A DNA stretch of 64,000 nucleotides from a virus (IMGVR_UViG_3300028374_000002:32001-96000), one strand, 5' to 3'. Counted from the first letter of the stretch, positions 2,979-42,926 are shown. Program-made: numbers and translations. Notes: generated from the sequence alone by a model not told the origin.

Positions 2979-3005
2979 ATATTTATTATTTTTTAGTATA
3001 AATAG

Positions 3006-3020
3006 CCAATAAATATGCCA
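3006..3020 (-). promoter_or_regulatory. Sigma54-like -24/-12 element upstream of dnaK
   Basis: Minus strand TGGCAT-ATTTA-TTGG fits the TGGCAC-N5-TTGC spacing with two mismatches. Confidence 0.35.
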
Positions 3021-3031
3021 TTTGTTTTTAC

Positions 3032-3046
3032 ATGACAAAATGTCAT
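3032..3046. promoter_or_regulatory. Palindromic operator-like site upstream of dnaK
   Basis: ATGACA-AAA-TGTCAT perfect inverted repeat. Confidence 0.45.
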
Positions 3047-3292: not shown

Positions 3293-3301
3293 TAATATAT
3301 A
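3293..3301 (+). promoter_or_regulatory. Putative phage (late) promoter TAATATATA
   Basis: Motif ends 4 nt before the ATG at 3306; the same motif and spacing recur across the window. Confidence 0.6.
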
Positions 3302-18133: not shown

Positions 18134-18155
18134 TTTTGCTTTTTTCAATTTATAT

Positions 18156-19881: not shown

Positions 19882-20406
19882 ATGGAAGATATAACTAAAT
19901 TTTTAAGGGATCGGGGAGTCATAGATGATAACTCAATAAAATTAACTATCATAAAAGATGATGGTGGAGAAATTAACCTTAATGAACTCATAGAGGAATA
20001 CTCTTCTTCTTATAATGAAAAATATATTAGGACACTTGCAGAACTAGAAAATTTCAAAAAACGTGTTAGTAAACAGAAAGAACAACTTAAAAAAGAAGTT
20101 CAATTAAAAACTCTTGAATCTGTTCTTGATATACATAATGAACTATCTATTGCAGTTGAAAAGACTATAAGCGAAGAGGCTAGAAGAAACTTCCAATCAA
20201 TGTTAAAAAAACTTGATAATTCCTTTAAAAGTATAGGTCTTGAAAAGGTTAAGAATAAGCAATATGATGTTGATATACATGAGGTTATAAGTATTGTTGA
20301 TTGTGAAAAGCATGGCATATATGAAGTTGTATCAAATGGTTATATAATGAATGATGAGATAATAAGATATCCTAAGATAATCTTGGGTAAATGTGATGGG
20401 GAATAA
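19882..20406 (+). CDS. grpE: Nucleotide exchange factor GrpE (divergent)
   Basis: EKYIRTLAELENFKKR, YDVDIHEVI, GYIMNDEIIRYPKIIL. Confidence 0.85.
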   Translation: MEDITKFLRDRGVIDDNSIKLTIIKDDGGEINLNELIEEYSSSYNEKYIRTLAELENFKKRVSKQKEQLKKEVQLKTLESVLDIHNELSIAVEKTISEEARRNFQSMLKKLDNSFKSIGLEKVKNKQYDVDIHEVISIVDCEKHGIYEVVSNGYIMNDEIIRYPKIILGKCDGE

Positions 20407-20930: not shown

Positions 20931-21257
20931 ATGAGCAAACTAAAAAATTGGAAGCTTAAATCAACTAATATTTCTATTAATGATACTACTAGGAAACGTT
21001 GTGAAACTAATGCTGAAATATACATGAATAAGTTTAAAATAATATTTGAAAACTTATTCGAATCGTCTTATTATTGTGGTGGTAATGTACCTACAAAACA
21101 AGAAGTAGAATCCCATTTAAACTCACTTGGATTTAAACTAACTATAAAAAAAGATGGAACTATGGTTTTGAAGTATAGTAGATACTTTGACATAGTACTT
21201 GATAGCAATACAAATTCAATAATAAGAGCAATTAAATTAAAAAATATTTTAAAATGA
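20931..21257 (+). CDS. Hypothetical protein (108 aa)
   Basis: Operon member; C-terminal IRAIKLKNILK motif. Confidence 0.7.
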   Translation: MSKLKNWKLKSTNISINDTTRKRCETNAEIYMNKFKIIFENLFESSYYCGGNVPTKQEVESHLNSLGFKLTIKKDGTMVLKYSRYFDIVLDSNTNSIIRAIKLKNILK

Positions 21258-22315
21258 AAGATAACTATTACGAAACACTAGGAATTGACAAAAACGCAAG
21301 TCAAGATGAAATAAAGAAAGCATATAGAAAGATGGCTTTAAAATATCATCCTGATAAAAACCCAGATGATATAGAAGCAGAGGGGAATTTCAAAAAAGCA
21401 GCTGAGGCTTATGATACACTAAAGGATGAATCTAAAAGAAATAATTATGACAGATTTGGAACTAGTGGAAACTCTAATACTGGTCAAAGTTCCAGCCAAG
21501 GCCATGGATTTGGTTTTGAAGACATATTCAATCAATTCGGTGATGTTTTTGGGAATTATTCAAAACAAAGATATAACAATTCTACACAACCTAAAAAGAA
21601 AGGTTCTAATCTTAGACTAAAGGTCAGTTTAACAATAGAAGATATACTAAATGGTGTGAATAAAACATTAAAGTATAATAGAAGGAAACATTGTAACACT
21701 TGTTCTGGTAAAGGTGGTAATGAAAGTTCTTCTTGTAATAAATGTAGTGGTAGTGGATATAAAATAATCATACAAGAAACACCATTTGGTAGTATGAGGC
21801 AACAAGTAATATGTTCTGAATGTGATGGAGATGGTACTCAAATAAAAAACAAGTGTAAAGACTGTGGTGGTCTAGGTACTAAAGAAGAATCAGAAAAACT
21901 AGATGTTGACATACCAGCAGGTGTTACATCTGGTATGAAGATAGGTATGAGTGGGTACGGCAACTATGCTAAGAATGGTATAGCGGGGGATTTACATATT
22001 TTTATTGATGAAATAAAAGAAGATTATTTCACCAGGGATAACAATAATATACTTATAAACAAAGAGATAAATGTAATAGATGCTATACTAGGTAATGAAG
22101 TTGAGGTAAAAACACCAAGAGGCACAATTAAATTAAATATAAACCCAGGTACTAAAGATGGACACGTGGCTAGATTCTCTGGTAAAGGAATACCTGATGT
22201 GAACTATGGTATGGGAAATATGTATGTTAGTATAAAAATAAGAATTCCAGCTGATATAAACGGAGAAGAAAGAAAAGTTTTAGAGAAACTAAAAGGCTCT
22301 GTTAATTTTAAATAA
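21254..22315 (+). CDS. dnaJ: Chaperone DnaJ
   Basis: J-domain with HPD, G/F linker, four CxxCxGxG repeats, C-terminal GDLHI...PGT. Confidence 0.97.
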   Translation: MKDNYYETLGIDKNASQDEIKKAYRKMALKYHPDKNPDDIEAEGNFKKAAEAYDTLKDESKRNNYDRFGTSGNSNTGQSSSQGHGFGFEDIFNQFGDVFGNYSKQRYNNSTQPKKKGSNLRLKVSLTIEDILNGVNKTLKYNRRKHCNTCSGKGGNESSSCNKCSGSGYKIIIQETPFGSMRQQVICSECDGDGTQIKNKCKDCGGLGTKEESEKLDVDIPAGVTSGMKIGMSGYGNYAKNGIAGDLHIFIDEIKEDYFTRDNNNILINKEINVIDAILGNEVEVKTPRGTIKLNINPGTKDGHVARFSGKGIPDVNYGMGNMYVSIKIRIPADINGEERKVLEKLKGSVNFK

Positions 22316-22517: not shown

Positions 22518-23153
22518 TTATATAATTGACACTTTAGCCTTTCTTTCGTTTAAAAGTATTTGTAATTCATCTTTTCTAAATGTTTTTAGATAAATATCGT
22601 TCATAGCATCTGTGTTTTGTAAATCCCATTCACTACCATTTGATGTTTGGTATATATATCTCTCATCACCATCAATAATCTCGATACTTCTAGATGTTAA
22701 CTTTTCATAAAACTTTTTAACATCATCATTTACTTTATACATCTTAGCATCTTCCCATCTATCCAAAGAAGAATTCCATGTTTGGAATAACATATAGTCT
22801 GGGTTTTCTAATTCATTAGCATTCATGTCATATATGAACATAAATTTACAGGCTTTATTTAAAAATGTTTGAAAATCATCACTATTCTTAACATCAGACT
22901 TCTTAAGTCCTATGCTAGACAAAGAATTTATAAATTCTATATTATCCGATAGAAATTCAATATCTAAATTATCAACATACACATCTGTTGGTAGGTCTAG
23001 TGTAGTAAATATGTTAACTTCTTCTGCATTTATAGAACTTATTAATGAATCATGCCATATATTTAGTGATTCCATTAAATCATCAAAATGTTCATATTCA
23101 AAATTGAATTGAATTGATTCTTTATAGCTATTGTAGTCCTTGATATATCTCAT
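22518..23153 (-). CDS. Hypothetical protein, CTS-like N-terminus
   Basis: MRYIKDYNSYKES; TAATATATA upstream. Confidence 0.8.
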   Translation of the reverse strand: MRYIKDYNSYKESIQFNFEYEHFDDLMESLNIWHDSLISSINAEEVNIFTTLDLPTDVYVDNLDIEFLSDNIEFINSLSSIGLKKSDVKNSDDFQTFLNKACKFMFIYDMNANELENPDYMLFQTWNSSLDRWEDAKMYKVNDDVKKFYEKLTSRSIEIIDGDERYIYQTSNGSEWDLQNTDAMNDIYLKTFRKDELQILLNERKAKVSII

Positions 23154-23239: not shown

Positions 23240-24607
23240 ATGAAATGGATTAGAAATTACGAGATATTCAAAGAGAGTAAATCATATTCAAATAAAAATT
23301 TAGTTAAAGAAATATGTACTTCAATGGTACTTCTTAACAATACGTTTTTAGATGATTTACTAGACAAAGGTATAAAGGCTAGATATTCGTCAAATTCTGA
23401 TGTATTCCTAACTGATTTAAAAAATCTATTAATTACTAAGAATAGATTAGAGTTAGGTAAGTACATTGATGGTAAATGTCAAAAAGATGATGAAATATCC
23501 AAAGTAATCGAACATTTTGAAGGTGTTAAGTTTGATATAGAGAAAGACTGGAAGTTGTTAGTAGATTCAAGAACTACTGCTAGAAGTATTATTGATAAAC
23601 TTTTAGCAGAGGAAAAGCTAGAAGAGAGTAGAATAAAGAAAGTATATTGGTTAGGACCAAACAAGACAGATGAATATGGTGAAGATATCGTTGTTGAGTT
23701 AAATGATGGTAGACAATTCTCTTTCTTCCTTGATAAAAGCTTATCAAAAACAAAAACAGCATCATTTAATAAGCTATCAGAAGAATTAATAGGTAATGAT
23801 TTAGATAATCTATTCAAGGGTGATTATCTTGAAAAATGGTCAATGCTAACACAAGAATGGATTACACTAATTTATGAGAATGTAAATAAAAATATACAAT
23901 CTCATATTGAAAAATTCATAGACACAAAAAATATTGATAAAATAGGATATTTTGATTTCTTTTCGATAAGACACAATGATTCTAGATATAGACACCTTGG
24001 GGAATATATGAAAGAGTTTGATAGAAACATACTTAATCTTTCTGATTTATTAATAGAAGTTTGGAAGGATAAGAAAATGTTTTTTAAAGATGAAGAATTA
24101 GTAACTAAAAAGTGGAATGAGACAAAAGTTGTTTTGCTCAACTCTAAAATACTAGAAAAGTTATTTACTGATTCTTTCAAAGAAAACTATCTAGATGACA
24201 TCGATAAACTAGATAATAATTTCAAACTAGCAACTGGTGAACTGAAAATGAAGTTATTTAAAATAATTGTTGAAAAATTAGGTTGCGAAGAAAGAAATAT
24301 TTATTACTTAGATAAGGGTAAATCATTCGAGATGATACCTTCTAGACAATTCTTTAGAAGATATTTTGATGATTTAGATATAATGTTTGACTATCACGTA
24401 GATTTTACAACTGATTCTGAAGATGATAATAATTTTGGGATTGTTATAAGAGTCGAAATGGATACTGATAAATTATTAGATTTAGACATTGATATAAAGT
24501 TTGCTGGTGGTGAGATGTCTGGTAAATTGAATGCTAAGTATAGTTTTGATATTTCTAAAAATTTTAACTATTTAGTATCTAAAAAGCAAACGTTTAAAGA
24601 ACAATAA
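23240..24607 (+). CDS. Hypothetical protein (455 aa), CTS-like N-terminus
   Basis: MKWIRNYEIFKES; TAATATATA about 21 nt upstream. Confidence 0.85.
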   Translation: MKWIRNYEIFKESKSYSNKNLVKEICTSMVLLNNTFLDDLLDKGIKARYSSNSDVFLTDLKNLLITKNRLELGKYIDGKCQKDDEISKVIEHFEGVKFDIEKDWKLLVDSRTTARSIIDKLLAEEKLEESRIKKVYWLGPNKTDEYGEDIVVELNDGRQFSFFLDKSLSKTKTASFNKLSEELIGNDLDNLFKGDYLEKWSMLTQEWITLIYENVNKNIQSHIEKFIDTKNIDKIGYFDFFSIRHNDSRYRHLGEYMKEFDRNILNLSDLLIEVWKDKKMFFKDEELVTKKWNETKVVLLNSKILEKLFTDSFKENYLDDIDKLDNNFKLATGELKMKLFKIIVEKLGCEERNIYYLDKGKSFEMIPSRQFFRRYFDDLDIMFDYHVDFTTDSEDDNNFGIVIRVEMDTDKLLDLDIDIKFAGGEMSGKLNAKYSFDISKNFNYLVSKKQTFKEQ

Positions 24608-24611
24608 CTAA

Positions 24612-24995
24612 TTACTGCTCTTGTGAAAACATTTCTATGAATTCTTCATCAAAGTCACCATTATCATCAAAAACTGGGACTTCGTCATAACCTATTTCAC
24701 ACATAAATGGAAAACTTGACTTAGAGTTGTATGTGGTTTTCATAATGACATCCTCTCCATTTACAGTAATATGGTAATTTGATACATAAAGACCATCACT
24801 ACCTAAATCTATTTCAAAAGGCTCACCACTTTCTTCTATGATTATACTTATACCTTCTGGTAATTGATGGTCTAATATTTTAAGAGCTAGGACACCCATA
24901 CATTTAAGTAATTTACTTTCATTAAAGAAATCTCTAGGTATTACTCTTTTGTAGTCACTATTATACGATTCGAATGTTTTTATGTTTTTTTCCAT
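24612..24995 (-). CDS. Acidic hypothetical protein, CTS-like N-terminus
   Basis: MEKNIKTFESYNS; TAATATATA 4 nt upstream. Confidence 0.8.
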   Translation of the reverse strand: MEKNIKTFESYNSDYKRVIPRDFFNESKLLKCMGVLALKILDHQLPEGISIIIEESGEPFEIDLGSDGLYVSNYHITVNGEDVIMKTTYNSKSSFPFMCEIGYDEVPVFDDNGDFDEEFIEMFSQEQ

Positions 24996-28583: not shown

Positions 28584-29388
28584 TTATATTAAGACACCTT
28601 TTAATTATACAGGTAGTAAATTTAAGATACTAAATCAGATAATACCAGAGATGGATTATAATAAGCCATACTTTTGTGACTTATTTTGTGGTGGTGGTTC
28701 TGTTTATACAAATATACTAGAACATTACGACAAAATATTAGCAAATGATATAATAGAAGATTTAATAGACATACATAAGCTTATATTAGTAGATGATAGC
28801 ATCATAGAAGATACAAAAGCATTATGTCCTGGTAAAGATAACAAAGAAGGATTTCTGTCGCTTAGAAGCTCTTATAATGAACATAAAACACCTTCTAAAT
28901 TATGGGCATTAATGCTATCATCAACAAATAATATGATGAGATTCAATAAGAAATTTCTATACAATCAAACTTATGGGAATAGGGGATGGAATCCTAACAC
29001 AGATAATAAAGTTAATGAGTTCAAAACAGAATTAAGAAAATATGGACATAAGATAAGATATACTTCTAAAAGCTTTAGTGATGTTAAAATATCATCTGAT
29101 AAAGTAATGTTATATTGTGATCCACCATATTCAAATACAGAAGCTGGTTATAATGCTTATTGGGAAAAGGATGATGACCAGAAGCTATATGAATATCTGA
29201 AAAATATAGATTCGAGTGGTTCTTCATTTATGGTTTCTGGTTCTTTAAAACATGATAATAAATCTTGCTTTTTACTAGATGAATTAATAAAGGATGGTTA
29301 TTCAGTAAAAAAGATAGAACACAATTATAACAAAGTATCTAGAAGCGGTAATAAGAAGACAGAGGAAATAATTATAATAAACTACTAG
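28576..29388 (+). CDS. dam: DNA adenine methyltransferase (Dam/D12 class)
   Basis: PFNYTGSK, DLFCGGGSV (motif I), ANDII, YCDPPY (motif IV). Confidence 0.92.
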   Translation: MDNYIKTPFNYTGSKFKILNQIIPEMDYNKPYFCDLFCGGGSVYTNILEHYDKILANDIIEDLIDIHKLILVDDSIIEDTKALCPGKDNKEGFLSLRSSYNEHKTPSKLWALMLSSTNNMMRFNKKFLYNQTYGNRGWNPNTDNKVNEFKTELRKYGHKIRYTSKSFSDVKISSDKVMLYCDPPYSNTEAGYNAYWEKDDDQKLYEYLKNIDSSGSSFMVSGSLKHDNKSCFLLDELIKDGYSVKKIEHNYNKVSRSGNKKTEEIIIINY

Positions 29389-29410
29389 GGATATATTAAA
29401 TAGTTTAATT

Positions 29411-29419
29411 TAATATATA
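29411..29419 (+). promoter_or_regulatory. Putative late promoter at the head of the LRR array
   Basis: TAATATATA 4 nt before the first ATG; no other intergenic space exists inside the array. Confidence 0.6.
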
Positions 29420-29423
29420 CTCT

Positions 29424-30155
29424 ATGAAACACATAAAATCTTACAAGATATTCGAGAGTGCTAGTCCTAACTTCCCAACTACAAGAGAGGAAGTTATAGA
29501 AGTTTGTGAAAAATATAAAATAGAAAAATATAGTATTAATGATGATTTAAGTATTGATGTTGATGGTGATGTTTATTTAGATGGTCAAAGCTTAGAATAC
29601 TTACCACTTAAATTTAATTATATAGAGGGTAGCTTTGATTGTCATTTTAATGAATTAAAATCATTAGAGGGTTGTCCAGAAAAAGTGGGTGGAACTTTTA
29701 ACTGTTCTTTTAATCAATTAAAAACATTAGAAGGTAGCCCACGAACAATAAATGGTCGTTTTAGTTGTTCTAATAATGAATTAAAAACATTAGAATTTAG
29801 CCCACAAACAGTAGGTGGTACTTTTCGTTGTATACATAATGAATTAAAGACATTAAAAGGTAGCCCACAAACAGTAGGTGGTAATTTTTCTTGTTCTCAT
29901 AATGAATTAAAAGATTTAGAACATTTCCCAGAAGTAAATAGTAGAATAGACATATTTGAAAACACAGTAAATTTATTAGTGTATACCTTTATTAAAAAAG
30001 CTGATAGCTTTATGATAGAAGACTTTGTAGATTATGAAATAGTCAGAAACAGAGATACTGTTATGCTAGATAGGCTTCAAACTTTTATAAGAGATAACGA
30101 TTTAGAAATGCCTGATTTGGAAGAAATTAAAAAAGAATATAAAATAATAGAATAG
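29424..30155 (+). CDS. LRR-like array paralogue 1 (4 internal repeats)
   Basis: MKHIKSYKIFES cap; LxxLEGxPxxVxGxFxCxxNx repeats; conserved ...YKIIE cap. Confidence 0.95.
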   Translation: MKHIKSYKIFESASPNFPTTREEVIEVCEKYKIEKYSINDDLSIDVDGDVYLDGQSLEYLPLKFNYIEGSFDCHFNELKSLEGCPEKVGGTFNCSFNQLKTLEGSPRTINGRFSCSNNELKTLEFSPQTVGGTFRCIHNELKTLKGSPQTVGGNFSCSHNELKDLEHFPEVNSRIDIFENTVNLLVYTFIKKADSFMIEDFVDYEIVRNRDTVMLDRLQTFIRDNDLEMPDLEEIKKEYKIIE

Positions 30156-30156
30156 A

Positions 30157-30888
30157 ATGAAACATATAAAACCTTATAAAATATTCGAGAATAAAAGTCC
30201 TAACTTCCCAACTACAAGAGAGGAAGTTATACAAGTGTGTGAAAAGTATGAAATAGAAAATTATACCATAAACGATGATTTAAGTATTGGTGTTGATGGT
30301 AGTGTATATTTAGAGAAGAAAAAATTAGAATACTTACCACTTAAATTTAATTATGTGAGTGGTACATTTATATGTTCTAGTAATAAATTAAAGTCATTAG
30401 AAGGTTGTCCACAAACAGTAAGTGGTAGTTTTTATTGCTTTAATAATAAACTAGAATCATTAGAAGGTAGTCCACAAACAGTAAATGGGGATTTTTATTG
30501 CTTTAATAATAATTTAAAAACATTAAAAGGGTGTCCACAAACAGTAAATGGTAATTTCAGTTGTGACAATAATGAATTAAAATCATTAAAAGGTTGCCCA
30601 CAAACAGTAAATGGTAATTTTGGCTGTAAAGATAATGAATTAAAAGACTTAGAACATTTTCCAGAAGTAAATGGTATTATAGACATAAGGGGAAATCCAG
30701 TAAATCTCTTAACATATACCTTTATCAAAAATGCTGATAGCTTTATGATAGAAGATTTTAACGACTATGAAATAGTTAGAAATAGAGATACTGTTATGTT
30801 AGATAGATTAAAAACCTTCATAGAAGGATTTGATTTAGAAATGCCTAATTTGGAAGAAATTAAAAAGCACTATAAAATAATAGAATAA
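30157..30888 (+). CDS. LRR-like array paralogue 2 (4 repeats)
   Basis: Same architecture; first 208 nt identical to paralogue 7. Confidence 0.95.
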   Translation: MKHIKPYKIFENKSPNFPTTREEVIQVCEKYEIENYTINDDLSIGVDGSVYLEKKKLEYLPLKFNYVSGTFICSSNKLKSLEGCPQTVSGSFYCFNNKLESLEGSPQTVNGDFYCFNNNLKTLKGCPQTVNGNFSCDNNELKSLKGCPQTVNGNFGCKDNELKDLEHFPEVNGIIDIRGNPVNLLTYTFIKNADSFMIEDFNDYEIVRNRDTVMLDRLKTFIEGFDLEMPNLEEIKKHYKIIE

Positions 30889-30890
30889 AC

Positions 30891-31622
30891 ATGAAACACA
30901 TAAAACCTTACAAAATATTTGAGAGTGCTGAGCCTAACTTCCCAACTACAAGAGAAGAAGTTATAAAGGTATGTAGAAGATATAAAATATATAGCTACAC
31001 TATTAATGATGATTTAAGTATTGATGTTGATGGTGATGTTGAATTATATAGTAAAAATTTAGAATACTTACCGCTTAAATTTAATTATGTAAATGGTTAT
31101 TTTAATTGTGATTATAACAACTTAAAAACATTAGAAGGGTGTCCACAAACGGTAGATGGGGTTTTTGATTGCTCTCAAAATGAATTAAAATCATTAAAAG
31201 GTTGCCCACAAACAATAGGAATGGATTTTTATTGTAGCTTTAATGAATTAGAAACACTAGAAGGTAGTCCATCAGTAGTGAATGCTAATTTTCTATGTGA
31301 TGATAATGAATTAACGACATTAAAAGGTTGTCCACAAACAGTAAGTGGTGGCTTTAACTGTAAATTTAATAAATTAACAGATTTGGAACACTTCCCAGAA
31401 GTAAATGGTATTATAGCCATAAGGGGAAATCCAGTAGATTTATTAGTACATACTTTTATCGAAACTGCTGATAGCTTTATGATCGAAGATTTTGTAGATT
31501 ATGAGATTGTTAGAAATGGTGATACTGTTATGTTAGATAGACTTCAGACCTTCATTAGGGATAACGATTTAGAAATGCCTAACTTGGAAGACATCAAAGA
31601 ACACTATAAAATAATAGAATAG
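30891..31622 (+). CDS. LRR-like array paralogue 3 (4 repeats)
   Basis: Same architecture. Confidence 0.95.
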   Translation: MKHIKPYKIFESAEPNFPTTREEVIKVCRRYKIYSYTINDDLSIDVDGDVELYSKNLEYLPLKFNYVNGYFNCDYNNLKTLEGCPQTVDGVFDCSQNELKSLKGCPQTIGMDFYCSFNELETLEGSPSVVNANFLCDDNELTTLKGCPQTVSGGFNCKFNKLTDLEHFPEVNGIIAIRGNPVDLLVHTFIETADSFMIEDFVDYEIVRNGDTVMLDRLQTFIRDNDLEMPNLEDIKEHYKIIE

Positions 31623-31623
31623 A

Positions 31624-32229
31624 ATGAAACATATAAAACCCTATAAAATATTCGAGAGTGTTAGTCATAACTTCCCAACTACAAGAGAGGAAGTTGTAAA
31701 AGTGTGTGAATATTACAAAATAGAAAATTACACTATTAATGATGATTTAAGTATTGATGTTGATGGATCTATTGGCTTATATAATAAAAATTTAGAACAC
31801 TTGCCACTTAAATTTAACTATGTAGATGGTGGTTTTCATTGTAATCGTAATAAATTAAAATCATTAGAAGGTTGTCCAAAAACAGTAAATGGTGATTTTT
31901 ATTGCTTTACTAATGAATTAGAGACATTAGAAGGTTGTCCGCAAACAGTAGGTGGTGATTTTTATTGCTTTACTAATGAATTAAAAGACTTAGAACATTT
32001 CCCAGAAGTAAATGGTAGAATAGATATAGAGGAAAATCCAGTAGATTTATTAGTACATACTTTCATTGATAATGCTGATAGCTTTATGATAGAAGATTTT
32101 AACGACTATGAAATAGTTAGAAACAGAGATACTGTTATGTTAGATAGGCTTCAAACATTTATTAGAGATAACGATTTAGAGATGCCTAATTTGGATAACA
32201 TTAAAGAACACTATAAAATAATAGAATAA
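31624..32229 (+). CDS. LRR-like array paralogue 4 (2 repeats)
   Basis: Same architecture, 201 aa. Confidence 0.95.
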   Translation: MKHIKPYKIFESVSHNFPTTREEVVKVCEYYKIENYTINDDLSIDVDGSIGLYNKNLEHLPLKFNYVDGGFHCNRNKLKSLEGCPKTVNGDFYCFTNELETLEGCPQTVGGDFYCFTNELKDLEHFPEVNGRIDIEENPVDLLVHTFIDNADSFMIEDFNDYEIVRNRDTVMLDRLQTFIRDNDLEMPNLDNIKEHYKIIE

Positions 32230-32230
32230 A

Positions 32231-32899
32231 ATGAAACATATAAAACCTTATAAAATATTCGAGAGCAATAGTCCTAAATTTCCAACTACAAGAGAGGAAG
32301 TTATACAAGTGTGTAAAAAGTATAAAATAATAGATTATACTATTAATGATGATTTAAGTATTGATGTTGATGGTGATGTTGAATTATATAGACAAAGATT
32401 AGAATATCTACCACTTAAATTTAATTATGTAAGTGGTAATTTTAATTGTTTTGTTAATAAATTAAAAACATTAGAAGGTAGTCCACAAACAGTATTTGGA
32501 TATTTTAACTGTGGTGGCAATGAATTAAAATCGTTAGAAGGTAGTCCACAAACAGTAGGTGGGCGTTTTAATTGTTATTTTAATGAGTTAGTATCATTAG
32601 AAGGTAGTCCACAAACAGTAGATGGTGATTTTGATTGTTCCTATAATGAATTAAAAGACTTAGAACATTTCCCAGAAGTAAATGGAACTATAGATATAGA
32701 AGATAATATAGTATATTGTTTAGTATATACCTTTATTAATAAAGCGGATAGCTTTATGATAGAAGATTTTATAGACTATGAAATAGTTAGAAACAGAGAT
32801 ACTGTTATGTTAGATAGGCTTCAAACTTTTATAAGAGATAACGATTTAGAAATGCCTAATCTGGAAGAAATTAAAAAAGACTATAAAATAATAGAATAA
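32231..32899 (+). CDS. LRR-like array paralogue 5 (3 repeats)
   Basis: Same architecture, 222 aa. Confidence 0.95.
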   Translation: MKHIKPYKIFESNSPKFPTTREEVIQVCKKYKIIDYTINDDLSIDVDGDVELYRQRLEYLPLKFNYVSGNFNCFVNKLKTLEGSPQTVFGYFNCGGNELKSLEGSPQTVGGRFNCYFNELVSLEGSPQTVDGDFDCSYNELKDLEHFPEVNGTIDIEDNIVYCLVYTFINKADSFMIEDFIDYEIVRNRDTVMLDRLQTFIRDNDLEMPNLEEIKKDYKIIE

Positions 32900-32901
32900 A
32901 C

Positions 32902-33951
32902 ATGAAACATATAAAACCTTATAAAATATTCGAGAATAAAAGTCCTAACTTCCCAACTACAAGGGATGAAGTTATAGAAGTGTGTAAAAGATATGGTATA
33001 GAAGACTACACTATTAATGATAATTTAAGCATTGATGTTGATGGTGATGTTGATTTAGGGAGGGTATACTTAGAATATTTACCACTTAAATTTAATTATG
33101 TGAGTGGTTATTTTGATTGTAATTATAATGAATTAAAGACATTAGAAGGTTGTCCAACAACAGTAGGGGGTAGCTTTTATTGCTATGGTAATCAATTAGA
33201 GACATTAGAAGGTTGTCCACAAACAATAGGTGGTGATTTTTATTGTAACATCAATATTTTAGAAACATTAGAAGGTTGTCCACAAACAGTAGAGGGTTAT
33301 TTTGATTGTAGCCATAATGGATTAACGTCATTAGAAGGTAGTCCACAAACAGTAACTGGGGGTTTTGGTTGTTCTAGCAATGAATTAACAACATTAAAAG
33401 GTTGTCCACAAACAGCGGGTAAGTATTTTGATTGCTCTTCTAATAAAAAATTAAAATCATTGAAGGGTTGTCCACAAAAAGTAGAGGGGGATTTTAATTG
33501 TAGTGGAAATAACTTAAAAACATTAGAAGGTGGCCCACAGACAGTGGGTGGTAATTTTCAGTGTTATTATAATAGTTTGGAAACATTAAAAGGTTGTCTA
33601 CAAACAGTAGATGGGGATTTTAATTGTCATTTTAATAAATTAGAAACACTAGAGGGTGGTCCACAAACAGTAAATGGGAATTTTCGTTGTTTTAATAATA
33701 AATTAAAAGACTTAGAACACTTCCCAGAAGTAAATGGTAGAATAGATATAAAGAAAAACACAGTAAATTTATTAGTATATACCTTTATTGAAAATGCTGA
33801 TAGTTTTATCGTAGAAGATTTTAACGACTATGAAATAGTTAGAAACAGAGATACTGTTATGTTAGATAGGCTTCAAACATTTATTAGAGATAACGATTTA
33901 GAGATGCCTAATTTGGATAACATTAAAGAACACTATAAAATAATAGAATAA
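32902..33951 (+). CDS. LRR-like array paralogue 6 (9 repeats)
   Basis: Same architecture, 349 aa. Confidence 0.95.
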   Translation: MKHIKPYKIFENKSPNFPTTRDEVIEVCKRYGIEDYTINDNLSIDVDGDVDLGRVYLEYLPLKFNYVSGYFDCNYNELKTLEGCPTTVGGSFYCYGNQLETLEGCPQTIGGDFYCNINILETLEGCPQTVEGYFDCSHNGLTSLEGSPQTVTGGFGCSSNELTTLKGCPQTAGKYFDCSSNKKLKSLKGCPQKVEGDFNCSGNNLKTLEGGPQTVGGNFQCYYNSLETLKGCLQTVDGDFNCHFNKLETLEGGPQTVNGNFRCFNNKLKDLEHFPEVNGRIDIKKNTVNLLVYTFIENADSFIVEDFNDYEIVRNRDTVMLDRLQTFIRDNDLEMPNLDNIKEHYKIIE

Positions 33952-33952
33952 A

Positions 33953-34684
33953 ATGAAACATATAAAACCTTATAAAATATTCGAGAATAAAAGTCCTAAC
34001 TTCCCAACTACAAGAGAGGAAGTTATACAAGTGTGTGAAAAGTATGAAATAGAAAATTATACCATAAACGATGATTTAAGTATTGGTGTTGATGGTAGTG
34101 TATATTTAGAGAAGAAAAAATTAGAATACTTACCACTTAAATTTAATTATGTGAGTGGTAATTTTTATTGTCATCATAATAAATTAAAATCGTTAGAAGG
34201 TAGTCCACAAACAGTAGAGGGGGATTTTAAATGTGCTTATAATAAATTAAAGACATTAGAAGATAGCCCACAAACAGTAGGTGGGCGTTTTATTTGTTAT
34301 TTTAATGAGTTAGTATCATTAGAAGGTAGTCCACAAACAGTAGATGGTGATTTTGATTGTTCCTATAATGAATTAGAAACACTAGAGGGTGGTTCACAAA
34401 CAGTAAATGGTAATTTTGATTGTTATAGTAATGAATTAAAGGACTTAGAACATTTCCCAGAAGTAAATGGAACTATAGATATGGGGGCAAATCTAGTAAA
34501 TCTATTAGTATATACTTTTATTGAAAATGCTGATATCTTTATGATAGAAGATTTTATAGATTATGAAATAGTTAGAAATAGAGATACTGTTATGTTTGAC
34601 AGATTAGAAACTTTTATAAGAGATAATGATTTAAAAATGCCTGATTTGGAAGAAATTAAAAAACACTATAAAATAATAGAATAA
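33953..34684 (+). CDS. LRR-like array paralogue 7 (4 repeats, mosaic)
   Basis: Segments identical or near-identical to paralogues 2, 10 and 5. Confidence 0.95.
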   Translation: MKHIKPYKIFENKSPNFPTTREEVIQVCEKYEIENYTINDDLSIGVDGSVYLEKKKLEYLPLKFNYVSGNFYCHHNKLKSLEGSPQTVEGDFKCAYNKLKTLEDSPQTVGGRFICYFNELVSLEGSPQTVDGDFDCSYNELETLEGGSQTVNGNFDCYSNELKDLEHFPEVNGTIDMGANLVNLLVYTFIENADIFMIEDFIDYEIVRNRDTVMFDRLETFIRDNDLKMPDLEEIKKHYKIIE

Positions 34685-34686
34685 AC

Positions 34687-35484
34687 ATGAAACATATAAA
34701 ACCTTATAAAATATTCGAGAGCAATGGGCCTAACTTTCCAACTACAAAAGAGGAGGTTATAGAAGTGTGTAAAAAGTATAAAATAATAGATTATACTATT
34801 AATGATGATTTAAGTATTGATGTTGATAGTTATGTTAGATTAGATAGTAAAAATTTAGAATACTTACCACTTAGATTTAATTATGTGAGTGGTGGATTTT
34901 CTTGTTGTAGAAATATATTAGTATCGTTAGAAGGTAGTCCACAAACAGTAGGTGGTGATTTTGACTGTCAAGGTAATGAATTAAAAACATTAGAAGGTAG
35001 TCCACAAACAGTGGGTACTAACTTTGAATGTTCTTATAATAACAAACTAGAAACATTAGAAGGTTGTCCACAAACAGTTGGTGGTTATTTTGGTTGTTCA
35101 CTTAATGAATTAAAATCATTAAAAGGTTGTCCACAAACAGTAGGTGGTGATTTTGATTGTTTTGGAAATGAATTAAAATCATTAGAAGGTTGTCCATCGG
35201 TAGTTAATGGTAATTTTAATTGTTCTTTTAATAAATTAAAAGATTTAGAACACATATCAGAAGTAAGTGGTAATATAGACATAAGACACAATGTAGTATA
35301 TTTACTGATGTATACCTTCATTGATAAAGCTGATAGCTTTATGATAGAAGATTTTATAGACTATGAAATAGTTAGAAATAGAGATACTGTTATGTTAGAT
35401 AGGCTTCAAACATTTATTAGAGATAACGATTTAGAGATGCCTAATTTGGATAACATTAAAGAACACTATAAAATAATAGAATAA
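34687..35484 (+). CDS. LRR-like array paralogue 8 (5 repeats)
   Basis: Same architecture, 265 aa. Confidence 0.95.
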   Translation: MKHIKPYKIFESNGPNFPTTKEEVIEVCKKYKIIDYTINDDLSIDVDSYVRLDSKNLEYLPLRFNYVSGGFSCCRNILVSLEGSPQTVGGDFDCQGNELKTLEGSPQTVGTNFECSYNNKLETLEGCPQTVGGYFGCSLNELKSLKGCPQTVGGDFDCFGNELKSLEGCPSVVNGNFNCSFNKLKDLEHISEVSGNIDIRHNVVYLLMYTFIDKADSFMIEDFIDYEIVRNRDTVMLDRLQTFIRDNDLEMPNLDNIKEHYKIIE

Positions 35485-35486
35485 AC

Positions 35487-36098
35487 ATGAAACATATAAA
35501 ACCTTATAAGATATTCGAGAGTGTTGGTCCTAACTTCCCAACTACAAGAAAGGAAGTTATACAAGTGTGTAATGGGTATAGAATAAAAAACTATACTATT
35601 AATGATGATTTAAGTATCGATGTTGATGGTGATGTTCATTTATATAGTAAAAATTTAGAATACTTACCACTTAGATTTAGTTATGTGAGTGGTGCATTTC
35701 TATGTTATGATAATGAATTAAAAACATTAGAAGGTTGTCCACAAACAGTAGGTAGGTCTTTTTCCTGTTCTAATAATTTTTTAGTATCGTTGAAAGGATG
35801 TCCACAAACAGTACGTGGTAGTTTTAATTGCTCTTATAATAAAATAACAGACTTAGAACACTTTCCAGAAGATAGTCAGGTCATATACATAGAAAATAAT
35901 CCAATATACAATCTAATAAATACGTTTATTTTTAAACCAAAAACTGATAGCTTTATGATAGAAGACTTTATAGATTATGAAATAGTTAGAAACAGAGATA
36001 CTGTTATGTTAGATAGACTTCAAACATTCATTAGAGATAACGATTTAGAAATGCCTGACTTAGAAGAAATTAAAAAAAAATATAAAATAATAGAATAG
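35487..36098 (+). CDS. LRR-like array paralogue 9 (2 repeats)
   Basis: Same architecture, 203 aa. Confidence 0.95.
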   Translation: MKHIKPYKIFESVGPNFPTTRKEVIQVCNGYRIKNYTINDDLSIDVDGDVHLYSKNLEYLPLRFSYVSGAFLCYDNELKTLEGCPQTVGRSFSCSNNFLVSLKGCPQTVRGSFNCSYNKITDLEHFPEDSQVIYIENNPIYNLINTFIFKPKTDSFMIEDFIDYEIVRNRDTVMLDRLQTFIRDNDLEMPDLEEIKKKYKIIE

Positions 36099-36100
36099 AC

Positions 36101-36832
36101 ATGAAACATATAAAACCTTATAAGATATTCGAAAGCAATGGTCCTAAATTTCCAACTACAAGAGAGGAAGTTATACAAGTGTGTAAAAAGTATAAAATAA
36201 TAGATTATACTATTAATGATGATTTGAGCATTGATGTTGATGGTGGTGTATATTTAAACAGAAGATACTTAGAATATTTACCACTTAAATTTAATTATGT
36301 GAGTGGTAATTTTTATTGTCATCATAATAAATTAAAATCGTTAGAAGGTAGTCCACAAACAGTAGAGGGGGATTTTAAATGTTATTTTAATAAATTAAAG
36401 ACATTAGAAGGATGTCCACAAACGATTAGTGGTAGTTTTAATTGCTCTGATAATTATTTGAAACTATTAAAAGGTTGTCCACAAACAGTAGATGGTAGCT
36501 TTGATTGTTCATATAATAAATTAATATCATTAGAGGATGGTCCACAAACAGTAGGTGGTTATTTTGAATGCGATAATAATAAATTAACTGATATGGAACA
36601 CTTCCCAGAAGTAAATGGTCCTATAATCATAGATGGGAATCCAGTAAACTCTTTAATATTTACCTTTATCAAAAACGCAGATAGTTTTCTCATAGAAGAT
36701 TTCGTAGATTATGAAATAGTTAGAAATGGCGATACTGTTATGTTAGATAGGCTTCGAACTTTAATTAATGATAATGATTTAAAAATGCCTGACTTAGAAG
36801 GTATTAAAAAGCACTATAAAATAATAGAATAA
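36101..36832 (+). CDS. LRR-like array paralogue 10 (4 repeats)
   Basis: Same architecture, 243 aa. Confidence 0.95.
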   Translation: MKHIKPYKIFESNGPKFPTTREEVIQVCKKYKIIDYTINDDLSIDVDGGVYLNRRYLEYLPLKFNYVSGNFYCHHNKLKSLEGSPQTVEGDFKCYFNKLKTLEGCPQTISGSFNCSDNYLKLLKGCPQTVDGSFDCSYNKLISLEDGPQTVGGYFECDNNKLTDMEHFPEVNGPIIIDGNPVNSLIFTFIKNADSFLIEDFVDYEIVRNGDTVMLDRLRTLINDNDLKMPDLEGIKKHYKIIE

Positions 36833-36835
36833 TGA

Positions 36836-37108
36836 TTAAATATCACTTAAATCAAAATTTGTTGTTTTTATTTTATAACAATTTGTCCAAAACTCAGTCA
36901 CAAAGTCTATAACAGTATCTGATTTAATTCTATCATTTTTATTTATCTCATTCTTTTCAGTATCACTAGAACATCTTTGGACATCAGCAATACCAGCAAA
37001 GAAGAATATATAAGCTTCTCCAATTTCTATGACATCAGTGTTTTCATAACATTCAAAATCATACTCTACATTTGAATGTCCTTCAATTTCTCTCTTAAAA
37101 TTTTTCAT
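36836..37108 (-). CDS. Hypothetical protein (90 aa)
   Basis: Start moved to MKNFKREIE (37108); -7 box upstream. Confidence 0.7.
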   Translation of the reverse strand: MKNFKREIEGHSNVEYDFECYENTDVIEIGEAYIFFFAGIADVQRCSSDTEKNEINKNDRIKSDTVIDFVTEFWTNCYKIKTTNFDLSDI

Positions 37109-37129
37109 AGTACAAATTGTTTTATAAAG

Positions 37130-37137
37130 CAAATATA
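37130..37137 (-). promoter_or_regulatory. Bacteroidota -7 box (TATATTTG)
   Basis: Exact match 21 nt upstream of 37108. Confidence 0.6.
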
Positions 37138-37198
37138 CAACATATAATATGAAAACCTAATAAATATAGATAATAATTATAAAGGGAGGTGTTTATAT

Positions 37199-37303
37199 TA
37201 ATATATACGTTAGCTGTTCACTGCTTATGTCGGATATCATTATGGTGTCTTAAAGATTTGATTAAGAATCAAAGATATAGGTTTAAAAATAAAAAGAATA
37301 ACT
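37199..37303 (+). promoter_or_regulatory. TAATATATA promoter plus a structured 5' leader of about 92 nt
   Basis: Hairpins GGAUAUCA-UUA-UGGUGUCU (pairs only with G-U wobble on the + strand) and UUUGAUU-AAG-AAUCAAA. Confidence 0.45.
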
Positions 37304-38140
37304 ATGAAAAAACAAATTTTAAATCCTAAGCCTAATGCTTGGGTCGTATCTTCTAAAGACAAAGGAAGAAAATCGATTAAAAATGGAAAAGTTTATCTAA
37401 AAAATAAAGAAAACTTTGAAATAGAATTATTTAATCCACTAAGTGAAAATATCTTAGCAGATATTAAGATAAATAAGACTTCTATTTCAGAAAATGGACT
37501 CATTGTAAAACCAGGACAAAGAGTATATTTAGACTGCTTTATTGACGACTTAAAAAAGTTTATATTTGAAACATATAATATTGAGGAATCACCAGAAGCC
37601 AAAGAAGCTATTTCTAATAATGGTGTGGTTGATGTATATTTCTATAAAGAAGAAGTGAAACAATTTAACATACCATTGAACCAATATTGGTATGGTGGAT
37701 ATCAGAAATATCCAATTACTTACCCCCATCCCTATCCTTGGTGTACATACACTACTAATACTGGAACGAGTTTTAATTTAAATAGTGGTAATTATACATT
37801 AACTAATAATAGTTCATCTAATTCAACGTTAACTAGTGATGTTCTTGGATTAGATGTAAGTAGTAGTATTGAAACTGGAAGAGTTGAAAGGGGTGATGTT
37901 TCAAATCAAAACTTTCAAAGTGTAGAAATGGATTTCGAAAGCTATTGTATATCTTCTGTTTCTATTATGCTATTACCAGAGAGTATAAAGCCTATTGAAA
38001 TAATTAAAAAGAAAGGTAAATCAAAAAATTCAGATGGTGTTATAGAATTAATAAACAAATTACATAATTTACTTGAAAGTGATGTTATAACAGAAGAAGA
38101 ATTTTCTAATAAAAAGAAAGAACTCCTCAATAGAATATAA
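37304..38140 (+). CDS. Conserved-looking phage protein with C-terminal SHOCT-like domain
   Basis: FEIELFNP...KPGQRVYL...ETGRVERG; C-terminal IELINKLHNLLESDVITEEEFSNKKKELL fits the SHOCT pattern. Confidence 0.75.
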   Translation: MKKQILNPKPNAWVVSSKDKGRKSIKNGKVYLKNKENFEIELFNPLSENILADIKINKTSISENGLIVKPGQRVYLDCFIDDLKKFIFETYNIEESPEAKEAISNNGVVDVYFYKEEVKQFNIPLNQYWYGGYQKYPITYPHPYPWCTYTTNTGTSFNLNSGNYTLTNNSSSNSTLTSDVLGLDVSSSIETGRVERGDVSNQNFQSVEMDFESYCISSVSIMLLPESIKPIEIIKKKGKSKNSDGVIELINKLHNLLESDVITEEEFSNKKKELLNRI

Positions 38141-38161
38141 ATTAATAATCGAACAGCTATT

Positions 38162-38191
38162 AAAAACCACTATGAACACATAGTGGTTTTT
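38162..38191 (+). terminator. Intrinsic terminator
   Basis: AAAAACCACTATG-AACA-CATAGTGGTTTTT, immediately followed by the next TAATATATA. Confidence 0.9.
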
Positions 38192-38218
38192 TAATATATA
38201 ATAAAAATAACCATAAAT

Positions 38219-39460
38219 ATGTTCATTAAGAAATATATAGAATTCATAAAAGAGGCAAATGAGGCGAATGTCAAATTAGACATACCGAAAAAATTCACAA
38301 GACAAGATATAGAGGAATTTTTCTTAGATTTTACTGATAATGAATGGGATATGTATATAAATAAAGATATTATAGAGACAGCTCTTCTAAGAGAAGAATA
38401 TCATATAAGAGACTTAATGATAGGATTAGATGAAGAATATTACCTAGTATATGATGTGGAGTTTAGTGCTAATTCAAACACATCAAGTGATAATGTTTCT
38501 TTAATATCTGCAATAGAGTTTATTACTAACTATACAAAGTCATTAACTGATTATGATGTAGTTATAAAGATAGACAACGGTATAGTTGATGTGGATGAGA
38601 TATTCATTAATGAAAATAATGAATTTATAGATAAAAGAACAGGATCTAATTTAGGAAATTATGGGATAATCACAATAGTTGATCACTTAATAGGGAGTAT
38701 AACAGCTAAGCAGCTCTTCCAACATTATGACTTTAAATATGATTATGAGAAAGATGGTAATGTATTTGTGGATATAGCATATACCGAACTTATAAAATAT
38801 GTGAATGATGAGGATTATGAGAATATTTTAAATAATGGATATACAGAATATGAAGATTATGGAGACTATGATATGAATTTACATGATTTGCTTTCTTTAT
38901 TAAACAAAGAAAATTTTTATTTGTTAATAGACATCTTTGTAAAAGAGCAAAATGGATGGGAATCATATTATGAAAATGAGTTTAAAGAACTAAATATAGA
39001 AGAAGGTATAGATTCTATTGATAAATTTAAAAGCTTCTTATATAATGAAAGATTCCATGATACATCAGATGAAGTATTTGATACTAGTGATGATACCATA
39101 ATATCTTTAAAACTTACTATTAGAGATTTGGAATTAAGAAGATTAGAATTTGATTATTTCAAGATAGTAGAAAATGCATTTGAAAAAAAGATTTTAGAAT
39201 CAATAGGTGGTGAAGTTATTACCAAAGAAAATAAAGAATCTAGTGATAAATTTTTTAGAGTACCATATAAGCAAGAATGGGTAGAGGGATCAGATTTTGA
39301 TGTTAATGATATGACACAGTGTGATATCGATGAAATTTTTGAGGAATATATGTCAAATTCTTGGTCATATGATTTAAAAATATCAGCACCAGAATCTTCA
39401 TCAATTAATAATGATGAACTAAACCAAGGTATTAATGAATTCTTGAAAGGTATTAGCTAA
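38219..39460 (+). CDS. Highly acidic protein (413 aa), CTS-like N-terminus
   Basis: MFIKKYIEFIKEANE; rich in Asp, Glu and Tyr. Confidence 0.85.
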   Translation: MFIKKYIEFIKEANEANVKLDIPKKFTRQDIEEFFLDFTDNEWDMYINKDIIETALLREEYHIRDLMIGLDEEYYLVYDVEFSANSNTSSDNVSLISAIEFITNYTKSLTDYDVVIKIDNGIVDVDEIFINENNEFIDKRTGSNLGNYGIITIVDHLIGSITAKQLFQHYDFKYDYEKDGNVFVDIAYTELIKYVNDEDYENILNNGYTEYEDYGDYDMNLHDLLSLLNKENFYLLIDIFVKEQNGWESYYENEFKELNIEEGIDSIDKFKSFLYNERFHDTSDEVFDTSDDTIISLKLTIRDLELRRLEFDYFKIVENAFEKKILESIGGEVITKENKESSDKFFRVPYKQEWVEGSDFDVNDMTQCDIDEIFEEYMSNSWSYDLKISAPESSSINNDELNQGINEFLKGIS

Positions 39461-42467: not shown

Positions 42468-42926
42468 TTATTTAATGTTATTACCATCAGATTGTACCTT
42501 TTTCATTTGTTTTTGATTCAATCCTTTTAATGAAGTTAACTGATTATTTCTACAATCGAAATTACGAGCGTGTGAAGGAGATCCTACCAAAGTCTCTAAT
42601 TTATTATATGAACAATCAAAATCACGAACATGTGAAGGGGATCCTTTCAAATTTTTCAATTTATTTTTACTACAGTCAAAGTCCTTTACAACCTCTTTAG
42701 GAGACCCAACTAATGACTCTAATTTATTGTCTTGACAATAGAAACTCCCACCGACCATTGAAAAGGTGATTGGTAATTTGGCTAAATTTTTATTAGCTAA
42801 ATTAACATCGCCTTTTACATCGATACTACCATTGCTATTTACTGTGTAATTCTTTATGCCAAATTTTTCACATAGTGTGTCTATATCACTTTCTACGCTT
42901 TCATTAAATGTTTTCAAATGCTTCAT
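42468..42926 (-). CDS. Orphan LRR-like paralogue of the array family (no C-terminal cap)
   Basis: MKHLKTFNES; FGIKNYTVNSNGSIDVKGDVNL; LESLVGSPKEVVKDFDCSKNK repeats. Confidence 0.9.
   Translation of the reverse strand: MKHLKTFNESVESDIDTLCEKFGIKNYTVNSNGSIDVKGDVNLANKNLAKLPITFSMVGGSFYCQDNKLESLVGSPKEVVKDFDCSKNKLKNLKGSPSHVRDFDCSYNKLETLVGSPSHARNFDCRNNQLTSLKGLNQKQMKKVQSDGNNIK

Follow-up and report, generated by a model that had tools for sequence, protein, structure and literature searches.

The leucine-rich repeat gene array

A window of 64,000 nucleotides, bases 32001–96000 of the linear IMG/VR virus record IMGVR_UViG_3300028374_000002 (201,264 bp; CheckV completeness 28%), contains a tandem array of genes for leucine-rich repeat (LRR) proteins. 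The array consists of ten open reading frames (ORFs) on the + strand at 29424–36832, all starting with ATG and separated by gaps of 1–2 nt. The original prediction, made from the sequence of the window, was of ten ORFs 1–2 nt apart behind one promoter-like motif, and the coordinates, the spacing and the lone upstream copy of TAATATATA were all borne out. The ten genes are an operon-like array of a phage multigene family. They are listed here in order, with the motif:

29411..29419, + strand, promoter-like motif TAATATATA, 4 nt before the first ATG of the array; next copy at 37199
29424..30155, + strand, LRR paralogue 1 (B3), 243 aa, 5 F-x-C-x-x-N modules
30157..30888, + strand, LRR paralogue 2 (B4), 243 aa, 5 modules; the protein used for the fold model
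30891..31622, + strand, LRR paralogue 3 (B5), 243 aa, 5 modules
31624..32229, + strand, LRR paralogue 4 (B6), 201 aa, 3 modules
32231..32899, + strand, LRR paralogue 5 (B7), 222 aa, 4 modules
32902..33951, + strand, LRR paralogue 6 (B8), 349 aa, 10 modules
33953..34684, + strand, LRR paralogue 7 (B9), 243 aa, 5 modules; chimera of paralogues 2, 10 and 5
34687..35484, + strand, LRR paralogue 8 (B10), 265 aa, 6 modules
35487..36098, + strand, LRR paralogue 9 (B11), 203 aa, 3 modules
36101..36832, + strand, LRR paralogue 10 (B12), 243 aa, 5 modules

Each protein has an N-terminal cap (N-cap) of 57 aa, then a series of 21-aa modules, then a C-terminal cap (C-cap) of ca. 81 aa that includes one degenerate last repeat. 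Two modules, one each in paralogues 6 and 8, are 22 aa long. The proteins are acidic, with isoelectric points (pI) of 4.3–5.0 and masses of 21–39 kDa. Counted by F-x-C-x-x-N, the ten proteins have 5, 5, 5, 3, 4, 10, 5, 6, 3 and 5 modules; the repeat counts first given for the array (4, 4, 4, 2, 3, 9, 4, 5, 2, 4) are one lower in each case, as they omit the first module, which is joined to the N-cap.

Two more arrays lie on the 201-kb record, which encodes at least 25 paralogues of the family and two diverged members. Neither of the further arrays was recognized in the original prediction, nor was the leader described below, which resembles the capsid-targeting sequence (CTS) of phage T4.

Hypervariable positions and selection

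Conservation within the repeat was calculated from 79 internal modules of 23 paralogues. F14, C16 and N19 are invariant, and L3, G5, P7, V10, G12 and L21 are conserved at 87–99%. Six of the 21 positions (11, 13, 15, 17, 18 and 20) are hypervariable, each with 9–15 residue types and 2.3–3.3 bits; the commonest residues at these sites are N, D, S, G, Y, E and F. This pattern of conservation and variability is far above chance. The hypervariable positions flank the F-x-C strand, and in the LRR register positions 13, 15, 17 and 18 are the classic x3, x5, x7 and x8 positions of the concave face, a mapping that rests on DSSP strand assignments and the canonical register. The entropy values, together with that mapping, agree with the earlier proposal that the variable positions occupy the concave-face sites of LxxLxLxxN.

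When all same-length paralogue pairs were pooled, dN/dS (omega) by the NG86 counting method was 0.25 in the N-cap, 0.21 in the C-cap, 0.29 in the framework and 1.5 at the variable positions. When the comparison was confined to the six closest pairs that do not overlap, the variable positions had an omega of 2.6 (bootstrap 2.07–3.36, with none of 2000 resamples at or below 1), for a class of positions that was defined on the same data, though theory predicts the same class. In the same pairs omega was 0.28–0.34 in the framework and 0.25 in the caps, so the predicted non-synonymous excess at the variable positions is present (2.6 vs. 0.25–0.34 elsewhere). Residues differ at 83% of the variable positions in these pairs, as against 16.5% of four-fold degenerate sites; random draws would be expected to differ at 89%, and framework residues differed in 20% of cases and cap residues in 17%. 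The caps and framework are under purifying selection, and the six strand-flanking positions are near-randomised between paralogues.

Predicted fold and similarity to other LRR proteins

The structure of paralogue 2 was modelled with AlphaFold2 (AF2) from an alignment with 27 relatives, and similar folds were identified with Foldseek. Confidence (pLDDT) was above 90 at residues 13–180, where a helix and hairpin form the N-cap and are followed by one short strand per repeat, assigned by DSSP to F14-x15 of each. Residues 1–12 were left unstructured. The top matches in the PDB were the LRR domains of SspH1, IpaH7.8, IpaH9.8, IpaH3 and YopM, all with a probability of 1.0, E-values of ca. 1e-3 and TM scores of ca. 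0.4. Almost all of the best 50 PDB matches were LRR proteins, with variable lymphocyte receptors (VLRs) and GPIb-alpha further down. Matches among AFDB clusters were uncharacterised proteins of 24–46% identity, some of them misnamed as pentapeptide-repeat proteins.

The sequence F-x-C-x-x-N-x-L corresponds to the canonical L-x-L-x-x-N-x-L, the second core site being occupied by Cys, and the LRR core, including the Asn ladder, is found in every module as F14-x-C16-x-x-N19-x-L21. According to the model, the repeats are a short-repeat LRR solenoid closest to the LRR domains of the IpaH, SspH and YopM proteins, and the LRR-like solenoid of the original prediction is thus upheld by AF2 and Foldseek. 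Curated LRR profiles were not matched above threshold: the best in Pfam was LRR_4 (15.4 bits vs. a cut-off of 27), and no NCBIfam model reached its cut-off. The family is an LRR subtype for which there is no profile. Searches of Pfam, NCBIfam and PHROGs gave no named family, only sub-threshold LRR_4, InlJ and SspH2 matches and phrog_7816, which has no assigned function.

A separate model of the C-terminal 84 residues, made from a more diverse alignment, showed a small alpha/beta domain predicted with confidence (pLDDT 83). For this C-cap there was no convincing relative among solved structures (Foldseek E-values all above 3; best VIA Z 2.8), a result that does not show a new fold.

The best structural matches, the LRR domains of type III effectors (Shigella IpaH, Salmonella SspH1/SspH2/SlrP and Yersinia YopM), share with the phage proteins short repeats of 20–22 residues and weak hidden Markov model similarity, yet sequence identity is only 15–27%. 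The caps differ, the phage modules have Cys in place of the second core Leu, and the phage genes are in tandem. The NEL E3 ubiquitin-ligase domain of such effectors had no match in Pfam or NCBIfam searches, and the region after the LRR is only ca. 60 residues long. In type III effectors the LRR face selects the host target, and the proteins enter the target cell ready-made; YopM is an LRR-only protein. Internalin J of Listeria has in common with the phage family a 21-residue repeat and a conserved core Cys, and was the best NCBIfam match (46.6 bits for the 349-aa paralogue, far under the 1700-bit cut-off). In contrast to internalin J, the phage proteins have no signal peptide, cell-wall anchor or internalin cap.

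The lamprey and hagfish VLRs were the comparison made in the original prediction. Both families have a cap-module-cap architecture with a variable number of LRR modules and diversity on the concave strand positions, and to that extent the likeness stands. However, VLR diversity arises somatically, by the joining of cassettes to a single incomplete gene, while the phage copies are complete, inherited germline ORFs; no somatic assembly machinery or reverse transcriptase was found on the 201-kb record. The LRRNT and LRRCT caps had no match among the window proteins, which have instead a helix and hairpin as N-cap and an alpha/beta C-cap. The phage family belongs to neither the NEL effectors, the VLRs nor the internalins. 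In giant eukaryotic viruses, ankyrin, LRR and FNIP repeat families also have paralogues that expand with genome size (PMC5753266), but the repeat types are different, and neither a capsid tag nor a hypervariable concave face is described for them.

A conserved N-terminal leader

No part of the protein is under stronger constraint than residues 1–11 (MKHIKPYKIFE), after which comes S or N. The proportion of synonymous differences (pS) here is 0.49 and that of non-synonymous differences (pN) 0.013, so the constraint is on the peptide and not on the RNA; in codons 12–20 pN is 0.12. The leader ends in the L/I-x-E motif of the T4 prohead protease, here I-F-E. Homologues of 43–56% identity retain M-K-x-[IL]-K-x-[FY], then [LI]-[FY]-E, then S, A, N or D. 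In distant homologues [LI]-[FY]-E is at residues 6–8 or 9–11, and these include some whose C-terminal domain is of another kind. There are also subfamilies with no leader at all, which indicates that it is modular.

Residues 7–11, Y-K-I-F-E, resemble the last five residues of the protein, Y-K-I-I-E. The C-terminal Y-x-[IV]-[IV] is kept in distant homologues, and in the model it forms one strand of the C-cap, but some of them lack the final E. This likeness between the two ends may therefore be due to chance.

In phage T4 the CTS is MKTYQEFIAE (PMC8442874), the propeptides of internal proteins have 10–19 residues, and gp21 cleaves after L/I-x-E (PMC9026906). The internal proteins of T-even phages are a diverse anti-restriction set with only the tag in common (PMC3012670), and one of them, IPI*, is injected and inhibits a restriction enzyme of the host (PMC3012670, PMC9026906). 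The T4 internal proteins and the LRR family are alike in having a short N-terminal peptide that ends in L/I-x-E, with polymorphic bodies behind it, and T4-type portal, protease and capsid genes are also found in the present phage. The differences are that T4 has three internal proteins per genome, basic (highly so in IPI–III; PMC8442874) and non-LRR, while this phage has at least 25 acidic LRR proteins that share whole caps. Paralogous head proteins of giant phages, such as the 20 members of SPN3US family B and the inner-body proteins of phiKZ, also form large, partly tandem families of varying number; they are located in the head, with functions that are unknown (PMC5694885). They are not LRR proteins and have long propeptides, and the likeness to them is one of family organisation.

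The T4-type head genes of the record include a portal (Portal_T4, 181 bits in a profile search), a Gp23-type major capsid protein (92 bits, with I-N-E-N near residue 43) and a head maturation protease (phrog_207, E 2e-27). The protease is fused to a scaffold-like region with ca. 11 tandem 13-residue units, Y-S-E-Y-[IV]-A-E-N-L-D-K-N-I. Each unit holds an I-A-E site of the protease type, and an acidic tract rich in His, Asp and Glu follows the units.

genome 141303–143441 (= L019:304–2442), - strand, protease fused to scaffold-like region, phrog_207

Leader-like starts, matching M-K-x-[IL]-K-x-[FY]...E, are found on 15 of the 205 ORFs outside the LRR family, as compared to 0.67% of internal Met contexts (p 1e-11). 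These ORFs are unrelated to the family. TAATATATA is upstream of 11 of the 15 and of 46 of the other 190 (odds ratio 8.6, p 2e-4), and they form a candidate set of co-regulated, tagged proteins:

38219..39460, + strand, unrelated 413-aa ORF, leader-like N-terminus MFIKKYIEFIKE, behind TAATATATA
23240..24607, + strand, unrelated 455-aa ORF, leader-like N-terminus MKWIRNYEIFKE, behind TAATATATA
22518..23153, - strand, unrelated 211-aa ORF, leader-like N-terminus MRYIKDYNSYKE, behind TAATATATA
window 3306–4565 and 24612–24995, further leader-like ORFs
genome 2286, 97951, 107526, 108022, 126792, 163564, 177202 and 186461, leader-like ORFs elsewhere

Over the whole record, 61 of the 78 copies of TAATATATA are at most 60 nt upstream of a start on the same strand, with spacing modes to the ATG of 4 nt and 18–22 nt; the 4-nt class would give leaderless or near-leaderless mRNAs. 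Copies in the window are at 3293, 23209, 29411, 38192, 43617, 45471 and other positions. In all three arrays a copy stands before the first gene, and there are others before the portal, tail tube and terminase large-subunit (TerL) fragment genes. The motif was considered as a strictly late promoter, which was rejected because the topoisomerase II gene has it too. Sigma-70-type promoters and intrinsic terminators at 29000–38300 were no commoner than in shuffled sequences, and none was found at the array end.

Other arrays, recombination and strain differences

The remaining family members on the record, and a tandem group in a 735-kb megaphage, are as follows:

genome 1–2233, - strand, array of 3 genes, cut by the contig end
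genome 183146–192328, + strand, third array, 12 genes, interrupted by a 240-aa non-LRR gene
genome 186461–187183, + strand, the 240-aa non-LRR gene, leader type MKHIKLYEEY, inserted in frame order, 1 nt after the preceding LRR gene
window 42468–42926, - strand, diverged member, 152 aa, 4 modules, leader MKHLKTFNE, no C-cap; phrog_7816, weak SspH2/InlJ LRR similarity
genome 147153–147917, - strand, second diverged member
L129 (LR756501.1), 231038–243547, four diverged members in tandem, 236–290 aa, in the 735-kb megaphage

One diverged paralogue lies within the head module, between the portal and protease genes. The members in L129 have an extra N-terminal domain of ca. 70–90 residues before the N-cap, and one starts MIKKFGLFESK.

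Exact matches of up to 208 nt are found between paralogues whose overall identity is ca. 75–80%. Paralogues 2 and 7 are identical over nt 1–208, two others (C18 and C19) over nt 1–207, and paralogues 4 and 6 over the C-terminal 137 nt; paralogues 5 and 7 share a tract of 82 nt. Paralogue 7 is a patchwork, with exact tracts at 1–208 (B4), 178–282 (B12) and 342–423 (B7). Paralogue 9 (B11) has long exact tracts in common with C24 of the third array, which links the two arrays. In some cases the two copies of a tract are out of register by exactly 63 nt, as is characteristic of unequal exchange over one module. Judging from these tracts, the arrays are shaped by duplication, gene conversion and unequal crossing-over, the last in steps of 63 nt.

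Four ENA contigs (L014–L017) are syntenic with the window upstream of the array (GrpE, DnaJ, methylase). Their identity to it is 96.4–98.7% as far as the array or its very beginning, beyond which they diverge. The array in L014 has six genes, of 244, 243, 306, 247, 285 and 243 aa, and lacks paralogue 1; that in L015 has seven. In L017 the array opens with a different 223-aa gene, paralogue 1 being replaced after ca. nt 430. Clear orthologues were found only for window genes 2 (86%) and 3 (96–97%), the latter in L014, L016 and L017 at 96.7% identity. The remaining array genes of these contigs are at most 76% identical to any window gene. Differences in the third array are seen in L023, L025 and L027 as well, and in other IMG/VR contigs the number of genes ranges from 2 to at least 12. 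Copy number and repeat number thus differ between near-identical strains, as the accordion-type turnover first suggested for the array implies. An invariant array in relatives, which the original prediction had named in advance as evidence against itself, was not observed; the arrays differ among strains.

There are 1529 close homologues, with lengths quantised at 201, 222, 243, 264, 285 and 306 aa, in 21-aa steps, and 16,241 cluster representatives match the family at E ≤0.001. The nearest ESM Atlas clusters are all viral and annotated "hypothetical protein". In a set of one genome each from 185,579 prokaryote species there was no close relative, so neither a cellular origin nor a prophage state is indicated. 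Ten long homologues (545–1228 aa) gave no informative fused domain in Pfam, the one match being PcfJ-like. Literature searches found no description of phage LRR arrays.

Many IMG/VR contigs, including the present record, end inside LRR arrays, and the arrays appear to be a main cause of fragmented megaphage assemblies (IMG/VR loci L020–L043). The window array was compared with Logan contigs from four lake and salt-lake runs (X1–X4). X1 and X2 leave no 300-nt bin of the stretch without a match of ≥97% likeness. Long flanking contigs enter the array at 29492 and 36770, and the interior is found in pieces of 120–370 nt. A region in the middle of paralogue 6 (33316–33616) is uncovered in X3 and X4, which may be due to strain differences or filtering. 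With coverage in pieces, the sequence content is independently supported; the exact order and some mosaic joints are not.

Phage and host

The source of the record is probably a megaphage of ca. 700 kb, of which it is a fragment. A megaphage origin and a host among the Bacteroidota are indicated by a type IX secretion system (T9SS) domain, by the likeness of the phage DnaK and by relatives in phages of 635–735 kb. Family members of 36% identity are encoded by uncultured phages of 735 kb, 642 kb and 635 kb. The largest "Mahaphage" genomes match these sizes, and Bacteroidetes are their predicted hosts (PMC7162821). DnaK is nearest to proteins of Bacteroidota (64–70%). Flavobacteriaceae, the host family named in the original prediction, is a narrower assignment than the evidence establishes; the Bacteroidota level stands. 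The public runs that contain the stretch are lake-water and salt-lake metagenomes. In a megablast of 24 kb against the INPHARED phages there was a single short match, of 73%.

Proposed function and alternatives

In this family the scaffold is fixed, the predicted binding face is almost randomised and the leader is like the T4 tag, so that the proteins are probably a library of binders, possibly injected ones. The case is strong that they are a repertoire of binders with different specificities. Each paralogue would bind a different ligand via its concave face, while the constant caps would share a common function. The first 11 residues are read, with moderate confidence and from sequence likeness, as a capsid-targeting propeptide of the T4 type that serves loading and injection. 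In the proposed mechanism, the leader would load the proteins onto the scaffold core of the prohead, the T4-like prohead protease of the phage would clip them after I-F-E, and the clipped proteins would be packaged alongside the DNA for ejection into the Bacteroidota host. There they would act at once, before phage genes are expressed, against variable host proteins. The targets might be host defence or takeover proteins, with defence nucleases or sensors as candidates; this is a weak suggestion, by analogy with the blocking of GmrSD by IPI* of T4. The explanation as a whole – a diversified binder repertoire that is probably loaded into the capsid and injected – is given an even chance of being right. 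A bolder version is held more tentatively: a germline, "immune-like" repertoire of dozens of capsid-loaded, injected LRR binders, each neutralising a different host defence or takeover target at time zero, in which the library would be renewed by module shuffling and by gain and loss of genes between strains.

Several points weigh against this explanation. The proteins are acidic, unlike the basic internal proteins of T4. The match of the protease to Pfam Peptidase_S77 is weak (E 0.0025). The leader pattern used to find other tagged ORFs was composed after the data had been seen. TAATATATA is also upstream of the topoisomerase II gene and may not be a late promoter. No RNA run is among the public runs listed as containing the stretch. 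In AT-rich genomes NG86 counting may give omega values that are too high, and the swapping of modules makes orthology less clear, although the comparison is within the same codon pairs. The gene order of the array comes from one short-read assembly, and no Logan contig spans it.

The acidity of the proteins and the topoisomerase II gene behind TAATATATA would fit with the same LRR binder repertoire acting only in the infected cell, unpackaged, which is the main alternative and is considered a definite possibility, though below the full explanation in probability. The 11-mer would then have another role – as part of the N-cap fold, as a signal for localisation or turnover, or as a docking peptide for the phage DnaK/DnaJ. 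The array lies among chaperone and DNA-modification genes, outside the head module, and since residues 1–12 have no structure in the AF2 model a role in folding is conceivable. However, the same kind of leader is found on unrelated proteins, which makes a fold-specific role unlikely, the leader of distant homologues ends exactly in L/I-x-E plus a small residue, and the genome encodes a T4-type protease and a scaffold with repeated I-A-E-N sites. That type of N-terminal propeptide also suits internal cargo better than parts of the virion surface, which is where a less probable reading would place the proteins: as exchangeable receptor-binding or decoration modules, anchored by the C-cap to a fibre, baseplate or capsid, with the LRR face binding glycans or proteins of the host surface and host range widened as a result. 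LRR adhesins (internalins) do exist, there is weak similarity to the InlJ LRR, the constant caps could serve as anchors, a promoter-like motif is common to the arrays and structural genes, and turnover at the strain level is typical of receptor-binding proteins. Yet no similarity was found to known fibre, baseplate or decoration domains, the arrays are distant from the tail and head genes, and at least 25 alternative tips would to our knowledge be without precedent.

Two further explanations are given little weight. Programmed diversification within infections, either by VLR-like assembly of cassettes or by a diversity-generating retroelement (DGR) acting on the modules, could account for the cap-module-cap build, the mosaic tracts and the fact that Asn (AAY codons) is the commonest variable residue. 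It is very unlikely: there was no RVT_1 or other reverse transcriptase match in the 201 kb of the record (ca. 28% of the genome by CheckV), all copies are complete ORFs with no partial cassettes, and E, K and Q, which adenine mutagenesis of AAY cannot yield, are frequent at the variable positions. The genes are stably inherited, as shown by orthologues of 86–97% identity in other strains, and this too argues against it. Slighter still is the chance that the array arose in assembly or consists of functionless, decaying duplicates. Short-read assemblers do break in arrays, with IMG/VR contigs ending there and Logan contigs fragmenting. But all 25 ORFs are intact with both caps, omega in caps and framework is 0.25–0.34, all parts of the array are covered at ≥97% in independent assemblies and both flanks enter it, genes 2 and 3 are in the same order in the four ENA contigs, and more than 1500 close homologues have lengths in 21-aa steps.

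If the capsid-loaded repertoire is real, it would be a viral counterpart of the recognition repertoires of the VLR and NLR type and a large expansion of the internal-protein strategy of T4. Phages would maintain large, fast-evolving recognition libraries like those of animal and plant immune systems, possibly delivered pre-made, and part of the unexplained coding capacity of megaphages would be accounted for. Pull-downs with the paralogues would be a direct route to defence or takeover targets in uncultured Bacteroidota, and the leader-tagged genes would define the injected proteome of a phage group without a cultured member. The engineering of binders would also gain a compact 21-residue LRR scaffold of natural origin, in which the variable positions are defined.

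Other genes in the window and record

Upstream of the array, the window encodes DnaK, GrpE, DnaJ, thioredoxin reductase and a T4-type RNA ligase, with a Dam-type methylase directly 5' of the array. Elsewhere, the record encodes a gp55-like late sigma factor, a tail tube protein and the TerL fragment. Features of the window near the array or of interest for the host are:

1110–3038, - strand, DnaK
19882–20406, GrpE
21254–22315, DnaJ
18951–19865, thioredoxin reductase
17075–18148, M42 aminopeptidase
10613–13756, - strand, 1047-aa protein with a C-terminal T9SS sorting domain (51 bits)
45500–51298, + strand, 1932-aa ORF behind TAATATATA; sole match CBM_5_12, near the C-terminus

The T9SS sorting domain is a secretion signal specific to Bacteroidota, here encoded by a phage. 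The 1932-aa ORF may encode a fibre or another large structural protein.

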